From IMG/VR virus record IMGVR_UViG_3300037585_001448, positions 1-64,000 of that record: a DNA stretch of 64,000 nucleotides. One strand, written 5' to 3'. The stretch's first letter is position 1, and every line of letters starts with the position of its first letter. The notes under the pieces are model-generated. The model had not been told where the DNA came from, made no database searches, and was given only the letters and a program-made list of their open reading frames with translations. The translations under genes and the position numbers were made by a program. Below are positions 53,216 to 64,000 of the stretch, piece after piece. Source of the DNA: a virus.

Positions 53216-54526
53216 TCACACCAAAGCCGGTTCGCCCAAGGCGGCTTCCATGCGTCGGGCGCTGCCACCGATCGAATACCCGCGGAGGTCGCCGTTCTGG
53301 ACTAGATCCCACGCCCACGGTTCCCAGATGACACCCATGAACGGGGTGTTGGCAGGGAAGTCGAACGCTCTGTCGTCTTCGCCGGGGAGGCTCATCGCTG
53401 CGGTGATCGGGAACGGCCAAGTCAGGAGTTCAACGAACTCTCCGGCTTTCGTATCGGAGTGCTGGAGGTAGATGGACCGGTCGTCCTTCTTCATCCACCC
53501 CCACAACGCTTGCTGCAATGTGTCGTCGTCAGTGAACTCACCGTGGGCGTCCAACACACCGGGGACGTAAACCGGGCCGAGGGTGTACCGCTTCGCGTCG
53601 GCCTTCTCCACAACCATTGTCCCCGACTTGGAAATGCGGGTTTGGATCTCGGCACGAACGAACTGGCGCATCGCTTCGACGTTCGGCGTGTTGCCCATCA
53701 TGTCAAAGCCGTTCATCCACTGGGTCAACTGGCTCAACGACGCACGGCTCACGCGCTGCAACGAGATTTCGGCGTCTCGGCGGTACTCGCGACGACGCTT
53801 GCCCTTGCCCTGCTCCACGTTGGCGTAGGTGCCGCCCGGCGTGAAGTTCAGTTCGTCGTCCACGACCTCCATGCCGAGCATGTCAAGCATGATCTCCTGC
53901 TTGGCGTGGATGAGTTCCATCAACGGGCCAAGCAACGGTTCGCACTCTGGGCTGTCCAGCATCGTGCGGTACGCCATCAACAGGAGAGTCATGGCGTCCT
54001 GCTCGTAGCCGCCACCGCCGTGGTCCTTGTCCATGATGCGCTTCCCTACCTCGTCGGCTGGAGTGTGAGTCGTTGTGCGGCTGGCGAGCAAAACCCGCGG
54101 GGCATCGGAGCGTTCCATCTCTGGGTGCATGTCCAGCCACGCTCGGAGCACCTTCGCTTTCACCGCGGGAAGGTCCGCTGCCGGGATGCGGACACGCTGC
54201 CCCCGGTAGCCCTTCCCTAGAGCAGCGACAGCCAAACCGACTTGCCGTCGGGTGACCTTCATCTCTGGTGTCTGCCAGAGCCGCAACTTCCACGTTGACG
54301 GCTTCTCAGGATCAGGGACGTAGGCGTAAGCCACGGCGGGGTATTCCTCACCGCTGTCCGTCTTGGTTGCCTTCTGCATGTCGGCCCCCTCTGATGCGTA
54401 CAGCGCAGCGATCTGACGGCGGGCCGCAGCGCGGGTCTTGTGGCAGCCCATCAACTGGTCGGTGCCGTCCTTGACGACGCCGAAGCCGGAACAATCGCTT
54501 CGGTTGGCAGCGACCGAGTAGGGCAT
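53216..54526 (-). CDS. XkdF-like prohead serine protease with N-terminal accessory domains
   Basis: GPVYVP..DAHGE, H, and GYSIGG catalytic-Ser motif. Confidence 0.75.
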   Translation of the reverse strand: MPYSVAANRSDCSGFGVVKDGTDQLMGCHKTRAAARRQIAALYASEGADMQKATKTDSGEEYPAVAYAYVPDPEKPSTWKLRLWQTPEMKVTRRQVGLAVAALGKGYRGQRVRIPAADLPAVKAKVLRAWLDMHPEMERSDAPRVLLASRTTTHTPADEVGKRIMDKDHGGGGYEQDAMTLLLMAYRTMLDSPECEPLLGPLMELIHAKQEIMLDMLGMEVVDDELNFTPGGTYANVEQGKGKRRREYRRDAEISLQRVSRASLSQLTQWMNGFDMMGNTPNVEAMRQFVRAEIQTRISKSGTMVVEKADAKRYTLGPVYVPGVLDAHGEFTDDDTLQQALWGWMKKDDRSIYLQHSDTKAGEFVELLTWPFPITAAMSLPGEDDRAFDFPANTPFMGVIWEPWAWDLVQNGDLRGYSIGGSARRMEAALGEPALV

Positions 54527-55095: not shown

Positions 55096-55641
55096 TCACA
55101 GGGCGATGGCCCCGGCGATCCGTTCAGTGATCGCAAAGTCGAACGGTGCAGCATCCCACCCGGTTGGGTCGTGGTCTACGCCCAGCCCGTCGGCGTCGAA
55201 CTCCTTGACCAACTGTGCTGCGAGATCCGGGGCGACGTACCGAAGCAGCGACAGGTACTCGGTGCGGAACGGTCGGGTGTGCCCCTTCGGGAGATCGTGC
55301 CGCCAGAACGACATCACATGGGCGAGTTCGTGGCAGATGATCTGGACGTTCCAGTGTTGCCTGTTGAGTCGGATCGCCCAACCCGCGTGGTAGTGACCAC
55401 CCCGGCTGGCCGAGTCCGACCGCTGCCGGAAACAGTGGACTGGTTCGATCATGGCAGCGTCGCCGCCCCGTGCGTACCAGTACGGCGACTCGGTGATTGC
55501 ATCGACCAGCGCCTTACACGAATCGAACTCGGTGAACGACTGGTAGGGCTTCAACACGACCCGGCTTTCCGCGGCGTACACCAGTTCGGCCTCAACGTCA
55601 GAGACAACATCCACGGTCGGATCAGCAGACCACGCGCTCAC
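55096..55641 (-). CDS. HEXXH metallohydrolase, TIGR04338/Rv0185-like
   Basis: VYAAE, CHELAH and GHxxxFxxxYLxL; GTGA overlap with the DUF2786 gene. Confidence 0.8.
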   Translation of the reverse strand: MSAWSADPTVDVVSDVEAELVYAAESRVVLKPYQSFTEFDSCKALVDAITESPYWYARGGDAAMIEPVHCFRQRSDSASRGGHYHAGWAIRLNRQHWNVQIICHELAHVMSFWRHDLPKGHTRPFRTEYLSLLRYVAPDLAAQLVKEFDADGLGVDHDPTGWDAAPFDFAITERIAGAIAL

Positions 55642-56498
55642 CGGGACAGCGCCCCTACCGCACCGCTCTTGACGGCTGAACCGCCAAGGCGTGCCCGTCC
55701 ACCGGCAGCCTGTCCAGCCGACCGGCCCGACCCGCCGAAAGACCCGGCAGATGATCCCCGCCCGGCGCACACCTTCGGGTACTTCGTGTCGAAGACGCTC
55801 TTGACCGCTTGGTCCTTGTCACGCAACGCCACCTCAACCGACGTACTGACGACCATTTCGGCTTCGGCCTGTTCGGCAGCGAACGCCTCTTCGGCTTCGC
55901 GTGTCGCTTCCAGCCGGGCTTGCCTGATCCGGCCCGCCACCCGGTCGGTGAACCCAAGCAGGAACGCGTTCTTCCAAGCGATGACATGGCCCGGCGCGTA
56001 TGTCTCCGACCGCATCTGAGCGACCATCTCTGGTGCATGGACCGCTTCGGCGGCTTGAAGGCTCAACGAGGTGACGAGCATGTCCACATAGTCAAGGTCG
56101 GACTCAAAGCCGCAGACCTCAATCCACTTGACGTACTGCCGCTTCGGACGCGGACCCCGGTCGGCAACATCAACCTCGTACCAGTCGTTCAACTCTGGGG
56201 AGAACTGCTTGCGGCCCGCTTGGATGATCTGCGTCAACCCGTGAGCACGGGCGATCTGGGAAACCAGATTCATCCGTGGACTCTCGTACTTCCCGGCATC
56301 GACGTAGAACCGTCGAAACCCGATCGTGTCTTCGACCGGTTTGCCAGCAGCGAGCACCAGCGCCTCTTCGATGCCGTACTTCGCCATCAGGCGTTCGGCA
56401 CCGCTGATGAAAGCGTGGGCCTCTTCCTCGTAGTCGGTGGCTTCGGCCTGATCCAGCAACGCCCGGACCTTGGCGAGCACCTTGTCATGGTTGCTCAT
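55638..56498 (-). CDS. DUF2786-domain protein, Rv0184-like
   Basis: KVRALLDQAE..EEEAHAF..AERLMAKYGI, GFESD and AFLLGFTDRV. Confidence 0.8.
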   Translation of the reverse strand: MSNHDKVLAKVRALLDQAEATDYEEEAHAFISGAERLMAKYGIEEALVLAAGKPVEDTIGFRRFYVDAGKYESPRMNLVSQIARAHGLTQIIQAGRKQFSPELNDWYEVDVADRGPRPKRQYVKWIEVCGFESDLDYVDMLVTSLSLQAAEAVHAPEMVAQMRSETYAPGHVIAWKNAFLLGFTDRVAGRIRQARLEATREAEEAFAAEQAEAEMVVSTSVEVALRDKDQAVKSVFDTKYPKVCAGRGSSAGSFGGSGRSAGQAAGGRARLGGSAVKSGAVGALSR

Positions 56499-56863
56499 TA
56501 GATGATCCCCGCCTTGTCCAAGTAGTCGGCTGCGAACTTCATCGCCTCGTTGAAGGCTCCGGCGTCTAGCGACCATGCAGGTACGCCGCCGTGGAGGTTG
56601 AGTCCAGCGGTCTGGCACCGGTCCTCGTCCAGCAAGGTTGATGCGTAGTACCGGCTGGCGAACTGGCCGTGGCCGGGGAACGTCGGGTCGCAGTTCGGAC
56701 GGGTGTAGTCGTAGAACTCAACCATCGCGCCGTATGGCTTGCCGTCCGGGTCAACGCTGTCGTTGACCAGACATCCGTCGCGACCGTAGGTCTCTCCCTG
56801 TCGGACGATCTTGACGAGGAACACCTTGCCCTCGTCGTTGGTCACCTTGTGGAACTTGTTCAC
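56498..56863 (-). CDS. Hypothetical protein
   Basis: GQFASRYY..GLNLHGGVPAW; AAGGAG RBS. Confidence 0.6.
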   Translation of the reverse strand: MNKFHKVTNDEGKVFLVKIVRQGETYGRDGCLVNDSVDPDGKPYGAMVEFYDYTRPNCDPTFPGHGQFASRYYASTLLDEDRCQTAGLNLHGGVPAWSLDAGAFNEAMKFAADYLDKAGII

Positions 56864-58449: not shown

Positions 58450-58689
58450 ATGGCTACCGACCCGATCACGCTGGACCGGCAAGCAGGACGCCTCGCAGCG
58501 TTTCTTCAACCCCAGCATCGCGGTGCGCTCGCCAAGACGGTTCTCGCCACCCCACCCGGCGACGACATCGCCGAGCCGTACCGGGGATGGTTGGAAGACC
58601 CCACGACCGTTCCTGTGATCGACCTTCTCAAGCCCTCAGAGTTGACGGCAGCCGACGCCGAGTGGATTCACGACGGAACCCGCGACTAG
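58450..58689 (+). CDS. Small protein, candidate immunity protein (ART-like domain)
   Basis: Convergent with the MuF gene; stop codons overlap at CTAG 58686-58689. Confidence 0.45.
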   Translation: MATDPITLDRQAGRLAAFLQPQHRGALAKTVLATPPGDDIAEPYRGWLEDPTTVPVIDLLKPSELTAADAEWIHDGTRD

Positions 58690-61600
58690 CCGACACTGAC
58701 CCCGACGGCGCTGCGATTGAGAATGACGTAGTAGTTGCCGGGGACTTCGGTGGTCGTCACCCCGGTACTAAAGTTGTACCCCGTCAACGTGGGCTTCACT
58801 ACTTCGATGATGTCCACCCCCTGCGACGCCGCATACCTGCCGACATCCGTGTAGAGCAGTTCAACAGTCTCTCCTAGACGCTTGAGTTCGGCCATTGCCT
58901 CCTTCACCGCTGGTTCGCTGAACCACGGATGGTCTGCCCCCGCTATGTCCTTCATACTTTCAACGGGCCAGTTCCTCATGTAGTCAGGGCCGAGGATCGT
59001 GTTGCCACGCTGGATGTCGATGTCGTCATACCTTTGCATCGCTTCCGTGACGCTCAGTGTCGTCTTCTTGATTTCTTCGATCTGGCTGTTGAGCGGTTGG
59101 GCTGCTTGAAGCATTTCTTGTTCTAACGGTTCGTACAGGGCGATCTTGGCGTCAGCCTCAACAACCATTTCAACAACGGTCCCGTGTTCCCAGTCTCCGC
59201 TACCGGTACCGATCCCGAACTTTTTTGTTGCGAAGTCATCAGCGATGTCCTCAACGTCGCTGGCGTAAGTACCGTTGCCGAACAGCCCTTGTCCCACATA
59301 GGTGGTGTCGCCGGGGTCGATGAACTCTTGGACGAACTGATCGACCTCCGCTCGCTCATTGGCACCGAAGCCGCGGTACAGAACTGTGCGCCCCTCTGCT
59401 ATGGCGTCTTCCATTTCCCCAACTGTCAACTGTTGGACGCCCGCGTCAGGCCACTGGGTTTTGATGATCTCCCGCAACGCCGGGTCGTTCGATACCTTTG
59501 GGTCGTTCCAACTGAGCCGGTTGTCGCCCGTCTTCGGCATGGACTCTATGACTTCTTCTACGTTGGCTACTTCGTCAAACCACTTCTCGGGCTTCGTCGC
59601 TTCGACCACACGCCCAACCGGCTGCTGTCCTTCGTTGATGAGCCGAGCGAACTCCTCAAGATCGTCAATCGTTTCCGATAAAGCCGAGGGATCGACAACC
59701 GGTGGTCTACCCGCTGCCCGCTGCCTGATCTCGGTGAGTGTGAAGTCCAACACCTCCGGCGATTCGGCTTGGGTGACGCGAGCCGCACGGATCATGTCGT
59801 TGACTCTCCCAACCTCAGGAAAGTCTAAGAGTTCGTCGGCCATGACAACAGCGTTCCGGTTCAAGAGAAGAACCTGACTGCTGTACGCTTCATCACCAGA
59901 CGAAATAAGCGTGTCAACAACAGCGTCGTAGCCGAGCAACGTCGCGATCGCCCCATCGTCGGCACGCGAAACCTTGACACCCTTGAAGCGGCCTTGCGCC
60001 CCCTGCATTTTGTCATTGACGACCAGCCGGTAGATCGACTGGAACGCCGGGTCGTCTATCGGGTCGCCGGTTTGTTTCGCTAAAGCAACCAGACCGAACG
60101 GGTCGTCACCCGTGTACCCCAACCGGTCCAGCGATGTGCCAACAGTTTCAATACTTGCCGAAGACGGCAGCCTGCCCGAGATATGTCCCGGTAGCACATC
60201 GTCAATCGTCCGGCCCCGGATGTCTCGTAGCGCCGACACCGCAGCGGTGGACGCATCATCTATCGCAAGGTCAGCGGCAACCTCAACGATCTCTTTCGCT
60301 TGGGCACCCATCGCCTGTTCGATAAGAGCAAGGTCGCTGCCCGTGACGGTCTTTGCGTCTGGTTGGAGCGCCGCACGAAGCACACCACCCGCCTCGTCCC
60401 CGCTCCAACCCTTTGAGTACGCCGCCGCCATGTCCATCGCGGTGTCCAACCCATCGCCATCGCCAAGGGTTCGCAAACCAGCCTCCGCGGAGGTCTCGCC
60501 AGCGTTGGAGAAGAAATAGGTACCGTCGCCGTAGTGGCCGGTCCCGGTGTGGAAGTCCCCGGATTGGAGTTCTTCAAGGAACTGGATGTTCTCGTCGCCG
60601 CGCAGCAACTCCAAGCCGCCTGATTCCAACACCTCGTCCAGTTCAGCGTCGGTTACCAGTTCAGGGAGGTCGTCAAACCCTCTGGCCCTGCGAAGATCCT
60701 CCAGTTGCGCCTTGACAGCGATCGTGTTGTCAGGGTCGGTGGGGTCAACTTTGACGCGGTATCTGACCCTTGTCGGGTCAGCGCGCGCATCGTCCAGCGT
60801 CGCCAAACCGCTATCAGTGACCATCCGTTTCGCCTTGTAATAGTCACGGTCGATCATCTCTTCTAACGCTTCGCGGGCTTGGGCCTCCCACGCAACCGCT
60901 ACCTGATCCAAGTTCGCACTCGTACCGAACGGGTCCACGAGATCAACGATGTCTTCAACATCCACGACCGGGCGCACAAAGTCCGGGTTCTTAGCAAGGA
61001 AGTCGTCGTACAGGTCCGGTCGAACAATGCGTTCCGATTCCCCGGCGATCTTCTCGTACACAAGGATCGGCTTTTCGCCCTGCGCGACGTTGTTGTCCCA
61101 CAACCTGATCTCATCGAACAGGTCGTCGGCTGCCGCTTGGGGGAACACTTCCGACACGCCAGCATGGGTGTCGCGTATCACCTGCTCTGGGACACGACGA
61201 CCGCTTCGCGCCCCTCGGGCTGCTGAACGGGCCACCGCTTCTTCGGTTTCGATCGTGACGTACTCGGCTGTCACTCGGGTGGAACTGGCACGGGCCTCAG
61301 CGACCTTCTTCTGCAACTTGGCGTAAGACGAATCGCCGGTACCGTCCAAGACAATGTTGTTGCTGCCGTCCAACGCTTCGCTCATCAACTGCTTGCCCAT
61401 GTACGACGACTCTTCATGCACATACGCCGCAGCGTTCACAGACCAGTCGCCGCGCTGGTCGATGATCTGGACGTATTCGGGAATCATGTCTTTGGCTTCG
61501 TCGGCGTTGACGAGCACATGACGATCAGGTAACACAATCGTGTCGGTGTTTGTGAGGCTGGACTTACCGGACGCCGGGCCACCCCCCATGAACACAACCT

Positions 61601-64000
61601 CGTTGGATTCGGTGTAGCCGCCCTTCGCTAACTCTGCTTCGATATATGGACGGTGAACGCCCTCAACACGCGACTCAATCCACTTGCCGTCCACGGTGTT
61701 GCGGGCCATTGTGTCGATCTCTGGCACAACGTCGTAGTCGGCTTTGCGAAGAAACTTGGCGTAAGCGTCCTCGTCGTAGATTTCCAGCAAGCCATCCTTC
61801 TTGCGGAGGATCAACTGGGGTGGATCAAAGTTCGTGTCCCACAGTTTGATGTCGTCAAAGATGTTCTCGTCCAGAATGTCGGGAAAGATCCGGCTGATAC
61901 TGGAATGGGTGTCTCGCACCACCTGTTCAGGGACGTACCGGCCTGTCCTGCGGCCACGGGCTGCCGCCCGGCGTACCGCCTCTTCGGTATCGACAGTCAC
62001 ATAGTCGGCGATGACGCGCTCACCGCTGCTGTTTGCCCGCGCTGACGACACCTTGCCCCGAAGTTTCTCAATGGACGAATCCCCGGTGCCGTCAAGCATC
62101 GTGTCGCGACCCGACTGAACCGACTCGGCCATGATCTCCTTGGAAAGCATGGATGACTCTTCGTGAACGTAGGCGGCAGCCTTCGTGTTGCTTTCCTTGG
62201 AAAGCACCTTGTATTCGGGAAGGTGTCCCTTGATTTCGTCGGCGTCAACGACGACCATCGTGTCCGGGTCGAAGTCGATCAACTTTTGCCTGATCGCTGT
62301 TCCCTTCCCTGACGCTGGACCGCCACCCATGAAGTGAACGACCTGTTCGCCCGGCTCGGCAACAGGAACGTCGCCGATGATGTCGGCTGCGATGTCCCGG
62401 TGAAGTTGCCTTCGGAGTTCCCAGTATTCGCCGTCGATCTGCGTGTACGCGTCTTCGGTGCCTCCCGGTAAGCGACCCCCGAACCGGTTGTAGAGGTCGT
62501 CGTCTGTTGCCAGCCGGTACGGGTTGGGTTCTTCGGGGAACCACTCAAGGTCCGTGACACGTTTCGGATGAGGGAGGTCGTCGGCGATGTCGGCAGCGGC
62601 CCGAACCAGACGCTTCTTCTCAATGTCGTCGATGCCTATTTGCCGGGACTTCTCGTAGTAGCCCCAAATCTTGTCTTTGACATCAAGGCTGTCTGGGGTG
62701 TGGAACTGGATTTCGATGATTACGCCGTCTGGGCCTCGGAAGTTTGCGTTGATGCCGTTGTACGGGTTCTTGGCGTTGGGTTGACGCCAGTAGTTCTTCG
62801 GTCCCTTGGTGAGTTCGTAGCCTCGGTCACGCAGGTCACGCATCGCTGCGGCGACATCATCGTTGTACCGGGCTTCGTCTATGACCATCGTGTACCGAAC
62901 AGAGTCGCTTACCTCGTCGGCGACCTCGGTTACCGTTCGTAGCCGCTGCGGGAACGCTGCCGTTTCGTCTACGAAGTCGGTGGCGATCTTGCGGGCCAGC
63001 GACGCTTCTTCCTTGACGTTGAACTGGAGGCCGTACAGGTCCGCTCCGATGTCGGACGCGGTGCCCTGCACCTGAGCGGTGATGTTGCCCTGCGCCGCGA
63101 ACGCCTTCTTGTGGATTCGGGTTGCTTCCCGCCACGCCTGCTCGCGTACCGCAGCAGGGATGTCCGGTGGTGCCATGACCTGACCGGGTAGCCCCGTGGA
63201 CGGTGGAACGATCGTGTCGTACACCACGGTCCAAGTGCAACGGCAGTTCGGGTGCGCTGGGGGCAGGTCTCGGGGTTCGACCACCCAGTTGCCGCCCCTT
63301 GGGTACGCAGCGTTGAACGATCCCCCCTCAAAGGCGACGACCTTGCCGTGAAGCGGTTCACAAATCTGGCACACCTCAAACGATGAGGTGATCCACTGAC
63401 GGCCAGCACGCTGCGGGTTGAACATTCCTGCTTCGGCTGCCTGCCGGGCTGCGACCATCTTGCCTTGGTTGGAGGCTTCCATCATCTCGGTGCGGGAGAT
63501 GACACGGGTTCGATGCTCGCGGAGTTTCTTGCCGTACTTGGATGCCTCACGTTCAACGGCTTCCAACGCCTGCTCGGTGGTCTTGCCTGCTGCGACCGCT
63601 TCCGCGAACACGGTGCGGCCCCGGTTCAAGACGGCGTTGTGTTGCGGCAGCGTCAACCCGGCTACCGAAGGAGCGAGTCGTTCACCGAACTCTGCTAGGT
63701 CACCCAGCGACGGTGCCGTCTCCAACACCTCGCCGAGCATGTTCATCATGGCTTGCCTGCCGCCCTTGCCGGTTGTGCCACCGATGATGTCTTGCAGGTT
63801 CGCTCGGGTGTCCTCAGCGATGTTGGTAATCAGCCGGGCTGATTTGTTTTCGGCCCACTGTTTCCCCGCCGGGGTTTTGGTGGAGAACCCGACAGAGAAC
63901 GACGACCCCACAGGTGGCATCAACGTCACCGTCTTCGGGGTTGCTGCCTTCTGGATCTGGTTGATGGCTGTCGGGTCTGGTTTGCGTTCCAGTTGCCCTA
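58686..64000 (-). CDS. MuF minor head protein fused to RelA/SpoT-like, two zeta-like kinase and two ADP-ribosyltransferase-like domains (5' truncated)
   Basis: RTE..CQIC..PPAHPNCRC (MuF); KEEASLARK, DSVRYT, YNGIN, EIQFHT (synthetase); GGGPASGK x2 with HEESS and LDGT (zeta-like); RG..GxGxY/FGxGTY..LNR x2 (ART-like). Frame is open to base 64000. Confidence 0.85.
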   Translation of the reverse strand, partial: GQLERKPDPTAINQIQKAATPKTVTLMPPVGSSFSVGFSTKTPAGKQWAENKSARLITNIAEDTRANLQDIIGGTTGKGGRQAMMNMLGEVLETAPSLGDLAEFGERLAPSVAGLTLPQHNAVLNRGRTVFAEAVAAGKTTEQALEAVEREASKYGKKLREHRTRVISRTEMMEASNQGKMVAARQAAEAGMFNPQRAGRQWITSSFEVCQICEPLHGKVVAFEGGSFNAAYPRGGNWVVEPRDLPPAHPNCRCTWTVVYDTIVPPSTGLPGQVMAPPDIPAAVREQAWREATRIHKKAFAAQGNITAQVQGTASDIGADLYGLQFNVKEEASLARKIATDFVDETAAFPQRLRTVTEVADEVSDSVRYTMVIDEARYNDDVAAAMRDLRDRGYELTKGPKNYWRQPNAKNPYNGINANFRGPDGVIIEIQFHTPDSLDVKDKIWGYYEKSRQIGIDDIEKKRLVRAAADIADDLPHPKRVTDLEWFPEEPNPYRLATDDDLYNRFGGRLPGGTEDAYTQIDGEYWELRRQLHRDIAADIIGDVPVAEPGEQVVHFMGGGPASGKGTAIRQKLIDFDPDTMVVVDADEIKGHLPEYKVLSKESNTKAAAYVHEESSMLSKEIMAESVQSGRDTMLDGTGDSSIEKLRGKVSSARANSSGERVIADYVTVDTEEAVRRAAARGRRTGRYVPEQVVRDTHSSISRIFPDILDENIFDDIKLWDTNFDPPQLILRKKDGLLEIYDEDAYAKFLRKADYDVVPEIDTMARNTVDGKWIESRVEGVHRPYIEAELAKGGYTESNEVVFMGGGPASGKSSLTNTDTIVLPDRHVLVNADEAKDMIPEYVQIIDQRGDWSVNAAAYVHEESSYMGKQLMSEALDGSNNIVLDGTGDSSYAKLQKKVAEARASSTRVTAEYVTIETEEAVARSAARGARSGRRVPEQVIRDTHAGVSEVFPQAAADDLFDEIRLWDNNVAQGEKPILVYEKIAGESERIVRPDLYDDFLAKNPDFVRPVVDVEDIVDLVDPFGTSANLDQVAVAWEAQAREALEEMIDRDYYKAKRMVTDSGLATLDDARADPTRVRYRVKVDPTDPDNTIAVKAQLEDLRRARGFDDLPELVTDAELDEVLESGGLELLRGDENIQFLEELQSGDFHTGTGHYGDGTYFFSNAGETSAEAGLRTLGDGDGLDTAMDMAAAYSKGWSGDEAGGVLRAALQPDAKTVTGSDLALIEQAMGAQAKEIVEVAADLAIDDASTAAVSALRDIRGRTIDDVLPGHISGRLPSSASIETVGTSLDRLGYTGDDPFGLVALAKQTGDPIDDPAFQSIYRLVVNDKMQGAQGRFKGVKVSRADDGAIATLLGYDAVVDTLISSGDEAYSSQVLLLNRNAVVMADELLDFPEVGRVNDMIRAARVTQAESPEVLDFTLTEIRQRAAGRPPVVDPSALSETIDDLEEFARLINEGQQPVGRVVEATKPEKWFDEVANVEEVIESMPKTGDNRLSWNDPKVSNDPALREIIKTQWPDAGVQQLTVGEMEDAIAEGRTVLYRGFGANERAEVDQFVQEFIDPGDTTYVGQGLFGNGTYASDVEDIADDFATKKFGIGTGSGDWEHGTVVEMVVEADAKIALYEPLEQEMLQAAQPLNSQIEEIKKTTLSVTEAMQRYDDIDIQRGNTILGPDYMRNWPVESMKDIAGADHPWFSEPAVKEAMAELKRLGETVELLYTDVGRYAASQGVDIIEVVKPTLTGYNFSTGVTTTEVPGNYYVILNRSAVGVSVG

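Follow-up and report, generated by a model that had tools for sequence, protein, structure and literature searches.

Polyvalent proteins have been described as carrying 2-15 effector domains, with the MuF domain named as a hub, and the survey lists fusions of MuF to RelA/SpoT and to zeta-like kinases and gives the ADP-ribosyltransferase (ART) as the commonest modifying domain, with up to 12 copies (Iyer et al. 2017, PMC5512222). ART and RelA-like toxins are likewise listed among the MuF toxins (Jamet 2017), and 39 EAS-type synthetases fused to SPP1/MuF are reported in the paper on the exported synthetase SaEAS (PMC12691689). Here we analyzed a gene of an uncultured marine phage in a stretch of viral DNA of 64,000 nucleotides (the window), which is the first 64 kb of the IMG/VR virus record IMGVR_UViG_3300037585_001448 (93,140 bp, CheckV rating 100% complete). 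The gene encodes a protein of 1,896 aa (P0002) in which a predicted MuF domain is followed by five enzyme-type modules: a RelA/SpoT-homologue (RSH) synthetase, two zeta-toxin-like kinases and two ART-fold domains (D4 and D5). We found P0002 to be an unusually rich example of already described polyvalent effectors and not a new kind of system. A preliminary description of this DNA had regarded the architecture as one not known to have been described, which overstated its novelty, since polyvalent proteins and fusions of MuF to RelA/SpoT, zeta and EAS domains were already published and, together with the MuF toxins, cover the class. Its further statement that MuF proteins usually carry a single C-terminal toxin holds for the temperate-phage set of Jamet 2017, and for that set only.

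The gene was observed as a single minus-strand open reading frame (ORF), open at the window edge in both the ORF list and its translation (Table 1). Within the whole record it runs from an ATG start at base 64376 to a stop at 58686, and the frame is unbroken over 5.7 kb. It sits among head genes: its first bases overlap the 3' end of the portal gene directly upstream, which is of the Portal_Mu type (Pfam, E 8.7e-34), while downstream on the same strand we observed small genes of no known function, a DUF2786 protein, a protease-like protein and the major capsid protein (phrog_1005, E 2e-87). Genes of the SPP1 gp7 / Mu F type classically occupy such a place. The single MuF-anchored head protein of the preliminary description was therefore borne out as one ORF in a portal-to-capsid cluster, and the module coordinates given there were right to within a few tens of bases. 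The major capsid protein was ~49% identical to Arthrobacter phage counterparts, and the related contigs were Tara Oceans assemblies, as judged by accession prefixes. Megablast of the P0002 gene against 50,697 phage records gave 0 matches, and no isolate among these records has the five-module architecture.

The motif PPAHPNCRC, on which the MuF assignment had originally been based, was located at P0002 372-380 (window 63237-63263) within a match to Pfam Phage_Mu_F (PF04233; E 8.6e-8, 33.3 bits against a cut-off of 29.6), confirming that assignment. The same region also matched TIGR01641 phageSPP1_gp7 (E 2e-4) and PHROG head-morphogenesis families. The module that follows aligned with the solved alarmone synthetase SaEAS (8VX3) at E 7e-12 as a single sequence and at E 1e-20 with a profile of ten relatives. 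Residues 406-605 additionally matched the NCBIfam model for XopAD/skwp type III effectors in its C-terminal domain (E 9e-23), which fits a published remark that Rel-like domains form the end of some XopAD proteins. By tblastn the module found MuF genes of S. pneumoniae, Mannheimia and Pasteurella prophages (E about 1e-15), which is where the Apk2 papers place their toxins. Judged by these alignments, the synthetase module is related to SaEAS and Apk2. The RelA/SpoT-type synthetase proposed in the preliminary description is thus upheld by these matches, though Pfam RelA_SpoT (PF04607) gave no match to the isolated segment even at E up to 10. Its motifs DSVRYT and EIQFHT hold the candidate catalytic residues D491 (D-x-x-R) and E555 (E-x-Q-x-x-T), respectively, and both residues were invariant in 10 relatives. 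EIQFHT aligned with EVQFHT in 8VX3, and D491 aligned with an Ala in the 8VX3 chain. As 8VX3 is the D121A mutant of SaEAS (PMC12691689), this Ala is, judged by the alignment, most likely the D121A site of the construct.

Pfam Zeta_toxin (PF06414) matched two stretches of P0002 (protein E 9e-41, 139.9 bits against a cut-off of 22.3), both carrying GGGPASGK, (D/N)ADE, HEESS and LDGTGD, and the two tandem zeta-like domains with intact motifs that had been described were confirmed by these matches and by alignment with zeta toxin 1GVN. K691 and D713 of kinase 1 aligned with K46 and D67 of 1GVN, and K938 and D959 of kinase 2, for which the profile match to 1GVN had an E of 2.5e-6, were assigned by paralogy to kinase 1. 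The kinases were 45% identical to each other (E 2e-60). Each copy had its own orthologues in relatives (64-95% identity for Zeta1 and 50-93% for Zeta2), and for this reason we consider the duplication to be old and both copies to have been maintained. The RSH and zeta motifs were invariant across ten relatives that were 46-88% identical overall.

D4 and D5 aligned weakly with each other (27% identity, E 0.007). Pfam gave no meaningful match to the isolated D4, D5 and N-terminal segments, with the ART-PolyVal model PF18760 silent at E up to 10, and gave nothing on ten short relatives of D4 and D5. Both domains matched a single family profile, at E 1e-39 (D4) and 1e-55 (D5); the underlying alignment comprised 64 mostly short members with D4 left out. 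When 1.84 billion representatives were scanned in full with HMMER, 268 proteins scored at E up to 0.001, and the majority of them matched both D4 and D5. An R (…RG), a G-x-x-x-x-G-x-Y (GNGTY) and a second R (LNR) were invariant in the alignment of 64, and GYD and L-N were kept in at least 90% of family members, with the R and Y of the candidate active site invariant (64-70 sequences).

AlphaFold models built with the family alignments reached a predicted local distance difference test score (pLDDT) of 84.8 for D5 and 80.0 for D4. We compared them with structural representatives (the VIA search; statements cover the top ~20 rows, 22 for D4), and the top 22 rows for D4 were all ART folds, with diphtheria toxin first (Z 7.6) and then cholix toxin (7.2) and SAIP (7.2). 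For D5 essentially all of the top ~20 rows were likewise ART-fold chains; chain B of the pre-ejectosome from cyanophage A4 had a Z of 9.0, diphtheria toxin one of 7.1 and SAIP one of 7.0, followed by cholix toxin, MbcT, exotoxin A, ParT, RES toxins, tankyrase and PARP1. Across both models the rows had Z of 7-9 with 110-140 residues aligned at 3.4-5.3 A. Against predicted viral structures (BFVD), D5 gave 19 matches at E up to 0.001, of which the named ones were 'ART-PolyVal-like' or 'PolyVal ADP-ribosyltransferase'. The fold of D4 and D5 is therefore ART, as far as prediction can show, and the two ART-like domains of the preliminary description stand at the level of fold. The fold check on the segments was successful in the VIA and BFVD comparisons, whereas with Foldseek the PDB yielded nothing for D5 beyond weak PARP rows (E about 0.05). 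Residues about 1261-1601 of PDB 9K3A chain B, from the A4 pre-ejectosome, gave D5 its best structural match, at 21% identity; the paper on A4 does not use the wording 'ADP-ribosyl', and the ART-like domain of that ejection protein seems to have gone unremarked.

Within the ART fold, the motifs YRG, GNGTY and GYDAI of the D4/D5 family were colinear with YHG, G(R/P)G(F/H)YF and LGYDG in profile-to-sequence alignments, the PF18760 side of which consisted of PF18760 domains plus one stretch tied to PF18760 by jackhmmer. Alignment by hhalign with three PF18760 segments gave E 0.002-0.003, and two family members matched PF18760 below its cut-off (25.6 and 21.4 bits against 31.2). We place D4 and D5 in the ART-PolyVal clade because of these colinear motifs, hhalign values and sub-threshold matches. 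At the active-site positions of PF18760, the strand-1 His was replaced by an invariant Arg, the strand-2 Tyr was invariant and the strand-5 Asp was present in at least 90% of members. The two domains are thus read as a divergent branch of ART-PolyVal (H-Y-D) with Arg for His (R-Y-D), and not as a classical R-S-E or H-Y-E toxin, with a catalytic role suggested by homology. Some polyvalent proteins were also found to combine members of the family with NUDIX modules and with other ART modules.

The modules of P0002 varied among its relatives. A protein from another sample (P0004; 1,888 aa, 88% identical to P0002) shares all five modules. In P0005 and L007 D4 is retained but D5 is replaced by about 570-670 aa, and P0007 has a single zeta domain together with D4 and D5. 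Unrelated tails follow MuF-RSH-zeta-zeta in P0008, P0010 and P0011, and MuF-RSH with one zeta in P0013, while the order in P0015 is MuF-zeta-ART-ART and P0016 combines two zetas with three ART copies. In close relatives the core was 93-98% identical versus 74-76% for D4. A search for homologues with different domain counts, named in the preliminary description as a check, therefore found them. Such cassette-like variation is as expected for polymorphic or polyvalent effectors, and from these comparisons the C-terminal modules appear as exchangeable cassettes on a MuF-synthetase-zeta core. A peptide tag shared by the five module borders was not found, the best match being 5/10 residues. A DUF3626 match was observed at the D5 position in P0005 (residues 1652-1796) and in the more distant relative P0014 (residues 1936-2001).

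A cultured relative was found in cyanophage P-SS2. In its gp030 the MuF match was weak, a single zeta domain was 40% identical and a single domain belonged to the D4/D5 family (E 1e-30). This protein resembles P0002 in following the portal gene, in its MuF, zeta-like and D4/D5-family domains and in a small convergent gene over its stop; it differs in lacking the alarmone synthetase and in having single zeta and ART modules. In purified P-SS2 virions ORF 030 accounted for 96.5 peptides, the highest among the table rows listed, and ORF 031 (68 aa, opposite strand) for 1.5 (Sullivan et al. 2009, Table 2, PMC2784084). The protein is annotated there as a capsid or head-morphogenesis protein, and its effector content is not described in the available part of the paper. 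From its domain matches gp030 is in fact a MuF-zeta-ART polyvalent protein, and its presence in virions is, by analogy, the best available evidence that proteins of this type ride in the particle.

Three neighboring genes bear on the function of P0002. An Aph1-like HD-domain gene lies five kb upstream of the P0002 gene among SSB and DNA methylase genes, and is not adjacent to it. It is likely an eraser for the synthetase module, judged by its match to a (p)ppApp hydrolase, and its presence favours (p)ppApp as a product of that module. Two small genes, sA and sB, were observed on the opposite strand at the 3' end. Their products had 95% aa identity in two Tara contigs (L009/L010) at 91% DNA identity, while the overlapping minus-strand frames had 75-86%; sA and sB are real genes under purifying selection, because protein identity exceeds both the DNA identity and that of the opposing frames. 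Neither had a family match, including to known immunity families, and Protein Atlas scores were at chance level or gave no match. There was no alignment or resemblance between sA and sB, no significant similarity of either to P-SS2 gp031, and a search for sB homologues in 5.8 billion proteins found only two near-identical clusters. Prediction of a complex between D5 and sB gave a median score of 0.01, uninformative either way. The two small genes may serve in immunity, as chaperones or in some other way. Macro and ADP-ribosylglycohydrolase genes were searched for in the phage and not found. Within the head module, the DUF2786 protein (326 aa, window 55641-56618, minus strand, with a weak DUF7168 match) lies between the MuF and protease genes. 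A 436-aa protein (window 53219-54526, minus strand) matched PHROG families named head maturation protease, 'RNA ligase' and 'DNA methyltransferase' over its C-terminal 130-190 residues, and is probably a prohead protease with an extra N-terminal part.

Table 1. Features of the P0002 gene, its neighbors and the P-SS2 counterpart. Coordinates are window positions unless otherwise given.
Feature	Coordinates	Strand	Remarks
Polyvalent MuF gene, window part	58686..64000	-	First 126 codons outside window; gene runs to record base 64376
MuF / SPP1 gp7-like head-anchoring domain	63231..63614	-	P0002 255-382; ends in PPAHPNCRC
RelA/SpoT-homologue synthetase module, EAS/Apk type	62565..63107	-	P0002 424-604; candidate catalytic residues D491, E555
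Zeta-toxin-like P-loop kinase 1	61839..62351	-	P0002 676-846; Walker A Lys K691; D713 aligns with zeta D67
Zeta-toxin-like P-loop kinase 2	61089..61601	-	P0002 about 926-1096; equivalent residues K938, D959
ART-fold domain D4, long helical insert	59805..60728	-	P0002 1217-1524; candidate triad R1259, Y1287, D1484; also N1506-R1507
ART-fold domain D5	58695..59627	-	P0002 1584-1894; candidate triad R1668, Y1704, D1855; also N1887-R1888
sA, 85 aa	58189..58446	+	Opposite strand, just 3' of P0002 gene
sB, 79 aa	58450..58689	+	Convergent with P0002 gene; both stop codons share CTAG
Aph1-like HD-domain gene, 163 aa	record 69125-69613, outside window	-	Matches (p)ppApp hydrolase 7SMG, E 9e-16
P-SS2 gp030, 1,499 aa	NC_013021 17648-22147 (L091:3789-8288)		MuF + zeta + ART, after portal gene
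P-SS2 gp031, 67-68 aa	L091:8285-8488	opposite to gp030	Overlaps gp030 stop

We consider it likely that P0002 is a capsid-anchored, injected multi-enzyme effector that acts as infection begins, and that the hydrolase encoded by the phage keeps the alarmone burst in check. The N-terminal region and MuF would tie the protein to the portal and capsid interior during assembly, and the five enzyme modules would therefore ride inside the particle and reach the host cell together with the DNA. There the EAS/Apk-type synthetase may pyrophosphorylate adenine, possibly guanine, nucleotides to (p)ppApp or (p)ppGpp, a synthesis that would drain ATP and stall the host. The two old paralogous zeta-type kinases would phosphorylate a nucleotide-sugar or nucleotide substrate, as zeta/PezT do UDP-GlcNAc, and D4 and D5, with R-Y-D in place of H-Y-D, would use NAD+ to ADP-ribosylate host targets. 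The Aph1-like hydrolase may later remove the alarmone, either in the infected cell after takeover has begun or in the producing cell. Of the injected polyvalent effector proposed in the preliminary description, a multi-effector protein carried in the virion is the best supported part, while activity, substrates and injection are features that we infer from sequence homology. Several observations weigh against the proposal. The Aph1-like gene and the small convergent genes fit toxin-immunity logic equally well. D4 and D5 go undetected by the Pfam ART-PolyVal model and do not have the canonical His/Glu, and the VIA Z values are middling, the fold argument being carried by the uniformity of the ART-only lists. 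On these three grounds D4 and D5 could be binding modules instead of enzymes.

The tandem modules come from a metagenome assembly, where they might be an artefact or a fusion of separate genes. This we consider extremely improbable, because there are no long internal repeats (the longest direct repeat in the P0002 gene was 41 nt at 73% identity, and aa identity between paralogous modules is no more than 45% for zeta and about 27% for ART) and because the architecture recurs and varies on independent contigs, of which P0004 has the same five modules and others cover the module junctions, in addition to the unbroken frame. The misassembly foreseen in the preliminary description as a possible objection was not borne out, and the tandem domains stand. 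A more substantial alternative is that P0002 serves competition between bacteria, as a MuF polymorphic toxin of the kind described by Jamet 2017 and for Apk2: lysogen-derived particles would kill non-immune cells, and the hydrolase, sA and sB would protect the producer. The variable C-terminal cassettes on a conserved MuF core are consistent with such a role, as are the two purifying-selected genes abutting the 3' end of the P0002 gene and the small gene in the same position over the gp030 stop, and the Aph1-like gene recalls the known hydrolase-type immunity of Apk2; it is mainly the hydrolase and the small conserved genes that keep this explanation in play. However, no integrase or resolvase (PF00589 or PF00239) was matched in the 93-kb record, rated complete, which does not in itself prove a lytic lifestyle, and no close prophage copy was found in GTDB (one genome from each of 185,579 species), where there were only MuF-level matches of up to 36% identity. 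The hydrolase also lies among replication genes and not beside the toxin, sA and sB resemble neither known immunity families nor each other, and L007 keeps D4 but has no clear sA homologue. We therefore regard a competition toxin as unlikely.

Fewer than five modules may be active, with D4 and D5 catalytically dead pseudo-ARTs that serve as structural or target-binding parts of a head or ejection protein, an arrangement that overlaps either of the roles above and that we rate as rather improbable. Pseudo-ARTs are known from PARP13 and TASOR. The replacement of the strand-1 His by Arg, the lack of a canonical catalytic Glu and the absence of a Pfam ART match would agree with lost catalysis, and the best structural match of D5 is to a structural protein of the A4 pre-ejectosome, while the very high peptide count of gp030 in P-SS2 virions would suit a head component. 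Yet Arg in strand 1 is normal in R-S-E ARTs, and R, GxGxY, GYD and N-R were invariant or nearly so across the 64-70 diverse sequences, a conservation which points to a conserved active or ligand-binding site; the co-occurrence with other ART and NUDIX modules also speaks against dead domains. A further, quite doubtful extension is that the R-Y-D domains form a distinct, unmodelled ART clade with new chemistry or targets, such as NAD+ breakdown or nucleotide or nucleic-acid modification, and that they act together with the synthetase and the two kinases of P0002, in stages and reversibly, against the host's pools of ATP, NAD+ and cell-wall precursors. The phage would then be a lytic marine one and not a lysogen, and the hydrolase and sA/sB would switch the attack off.

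Compared with known systems, P0002 shares with the polyvalent proteins its several effector domains (at least two distinct ones, given five enzyme-type modules), a head-packaging gene context, the MuF hub and predicted delivery with the DNA, while the exact MuF-RSH-zeta-zeta-ART-ART order is not found in the available part of the survey (PMC5512222). It has no MPTase or other processing peptidase domain, and its ART copies are R-Y-D and not H-Y-D, below the Pfam ART-PolyVal threshold. With the MuF toxins (Jamet 2017) it shares the N-terminal MuF and a variable C-terminal region. Apk2 (Bartoli 2023; Paulet 2025, PMC12226406) is similar in having MuF followed by an RSH-type pyrophosphokinase, with a (p)ppApp-hydrolase-type gene in the same phage, and the Aph1-like gene mirrors the hydrolase-type immunity reported there. 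Apk2 has one toxin domain and occurs in temperate phages of Firmicutes and Pasteurellaceae, whereas P0002, about 28% identical to the Apk2-type genes of S. pneumoniae prophages, has four more modules, no integrase found and a hydrolase that is not adjacent. Among solved structures the synthetase module is closest to SaEAS from Streptomyces albidoflavus, with which its catalytic Asp and Glu motifs can be aligned. As a Sec-exported enzyme SaEAS stands alone, unlike the P0002 module embedded after MuF, and it makes both (p)ppApp and (p)ppGpp.

The kinases are like zeta/PezT (1GVN, 2P5T) in their Zeta_toxin fold, Walker A Lys and catalytic Asp in a D-x-D-type motif, and unlike them in being tandem paralogues inside a larger protein with GGGPASGK(G/S) as Walker A; an epsilon/PezA partner was not identified, no search having been aimed at one. 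D4 and D5 share with ART-PolyVal (PF18760; N4-ART / Tox-ART-HYD2 clade) the ART fold, the colinear motifs and a helical insert separating the two halves, and like it they occur, frequently as multiple copies, within MuF and polyvalent proteins, but they carry Arg for the strand-1 His and an extra N-R in the last strands that is invariant or nearly so. What is new here is the five-module protein, the unmodelled R-Y-D branch of ARTs and the link to P-SS2 gp030. The R-Y-D family, as defined here, is missed by current Pfam models (268 representative clusters at E up to 0.001), and gp030, a cultured relative with published virion presence, provides a handle on the packaging, processing and activity of such cargo. 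P0002 is one of the richer natural cases of several predicted host-directed enzymes behind one capsid anchor, and it joins three published lines: the polyvalent proteins, the MuF/Apk2 toxins and the exported alarmone synthetases.

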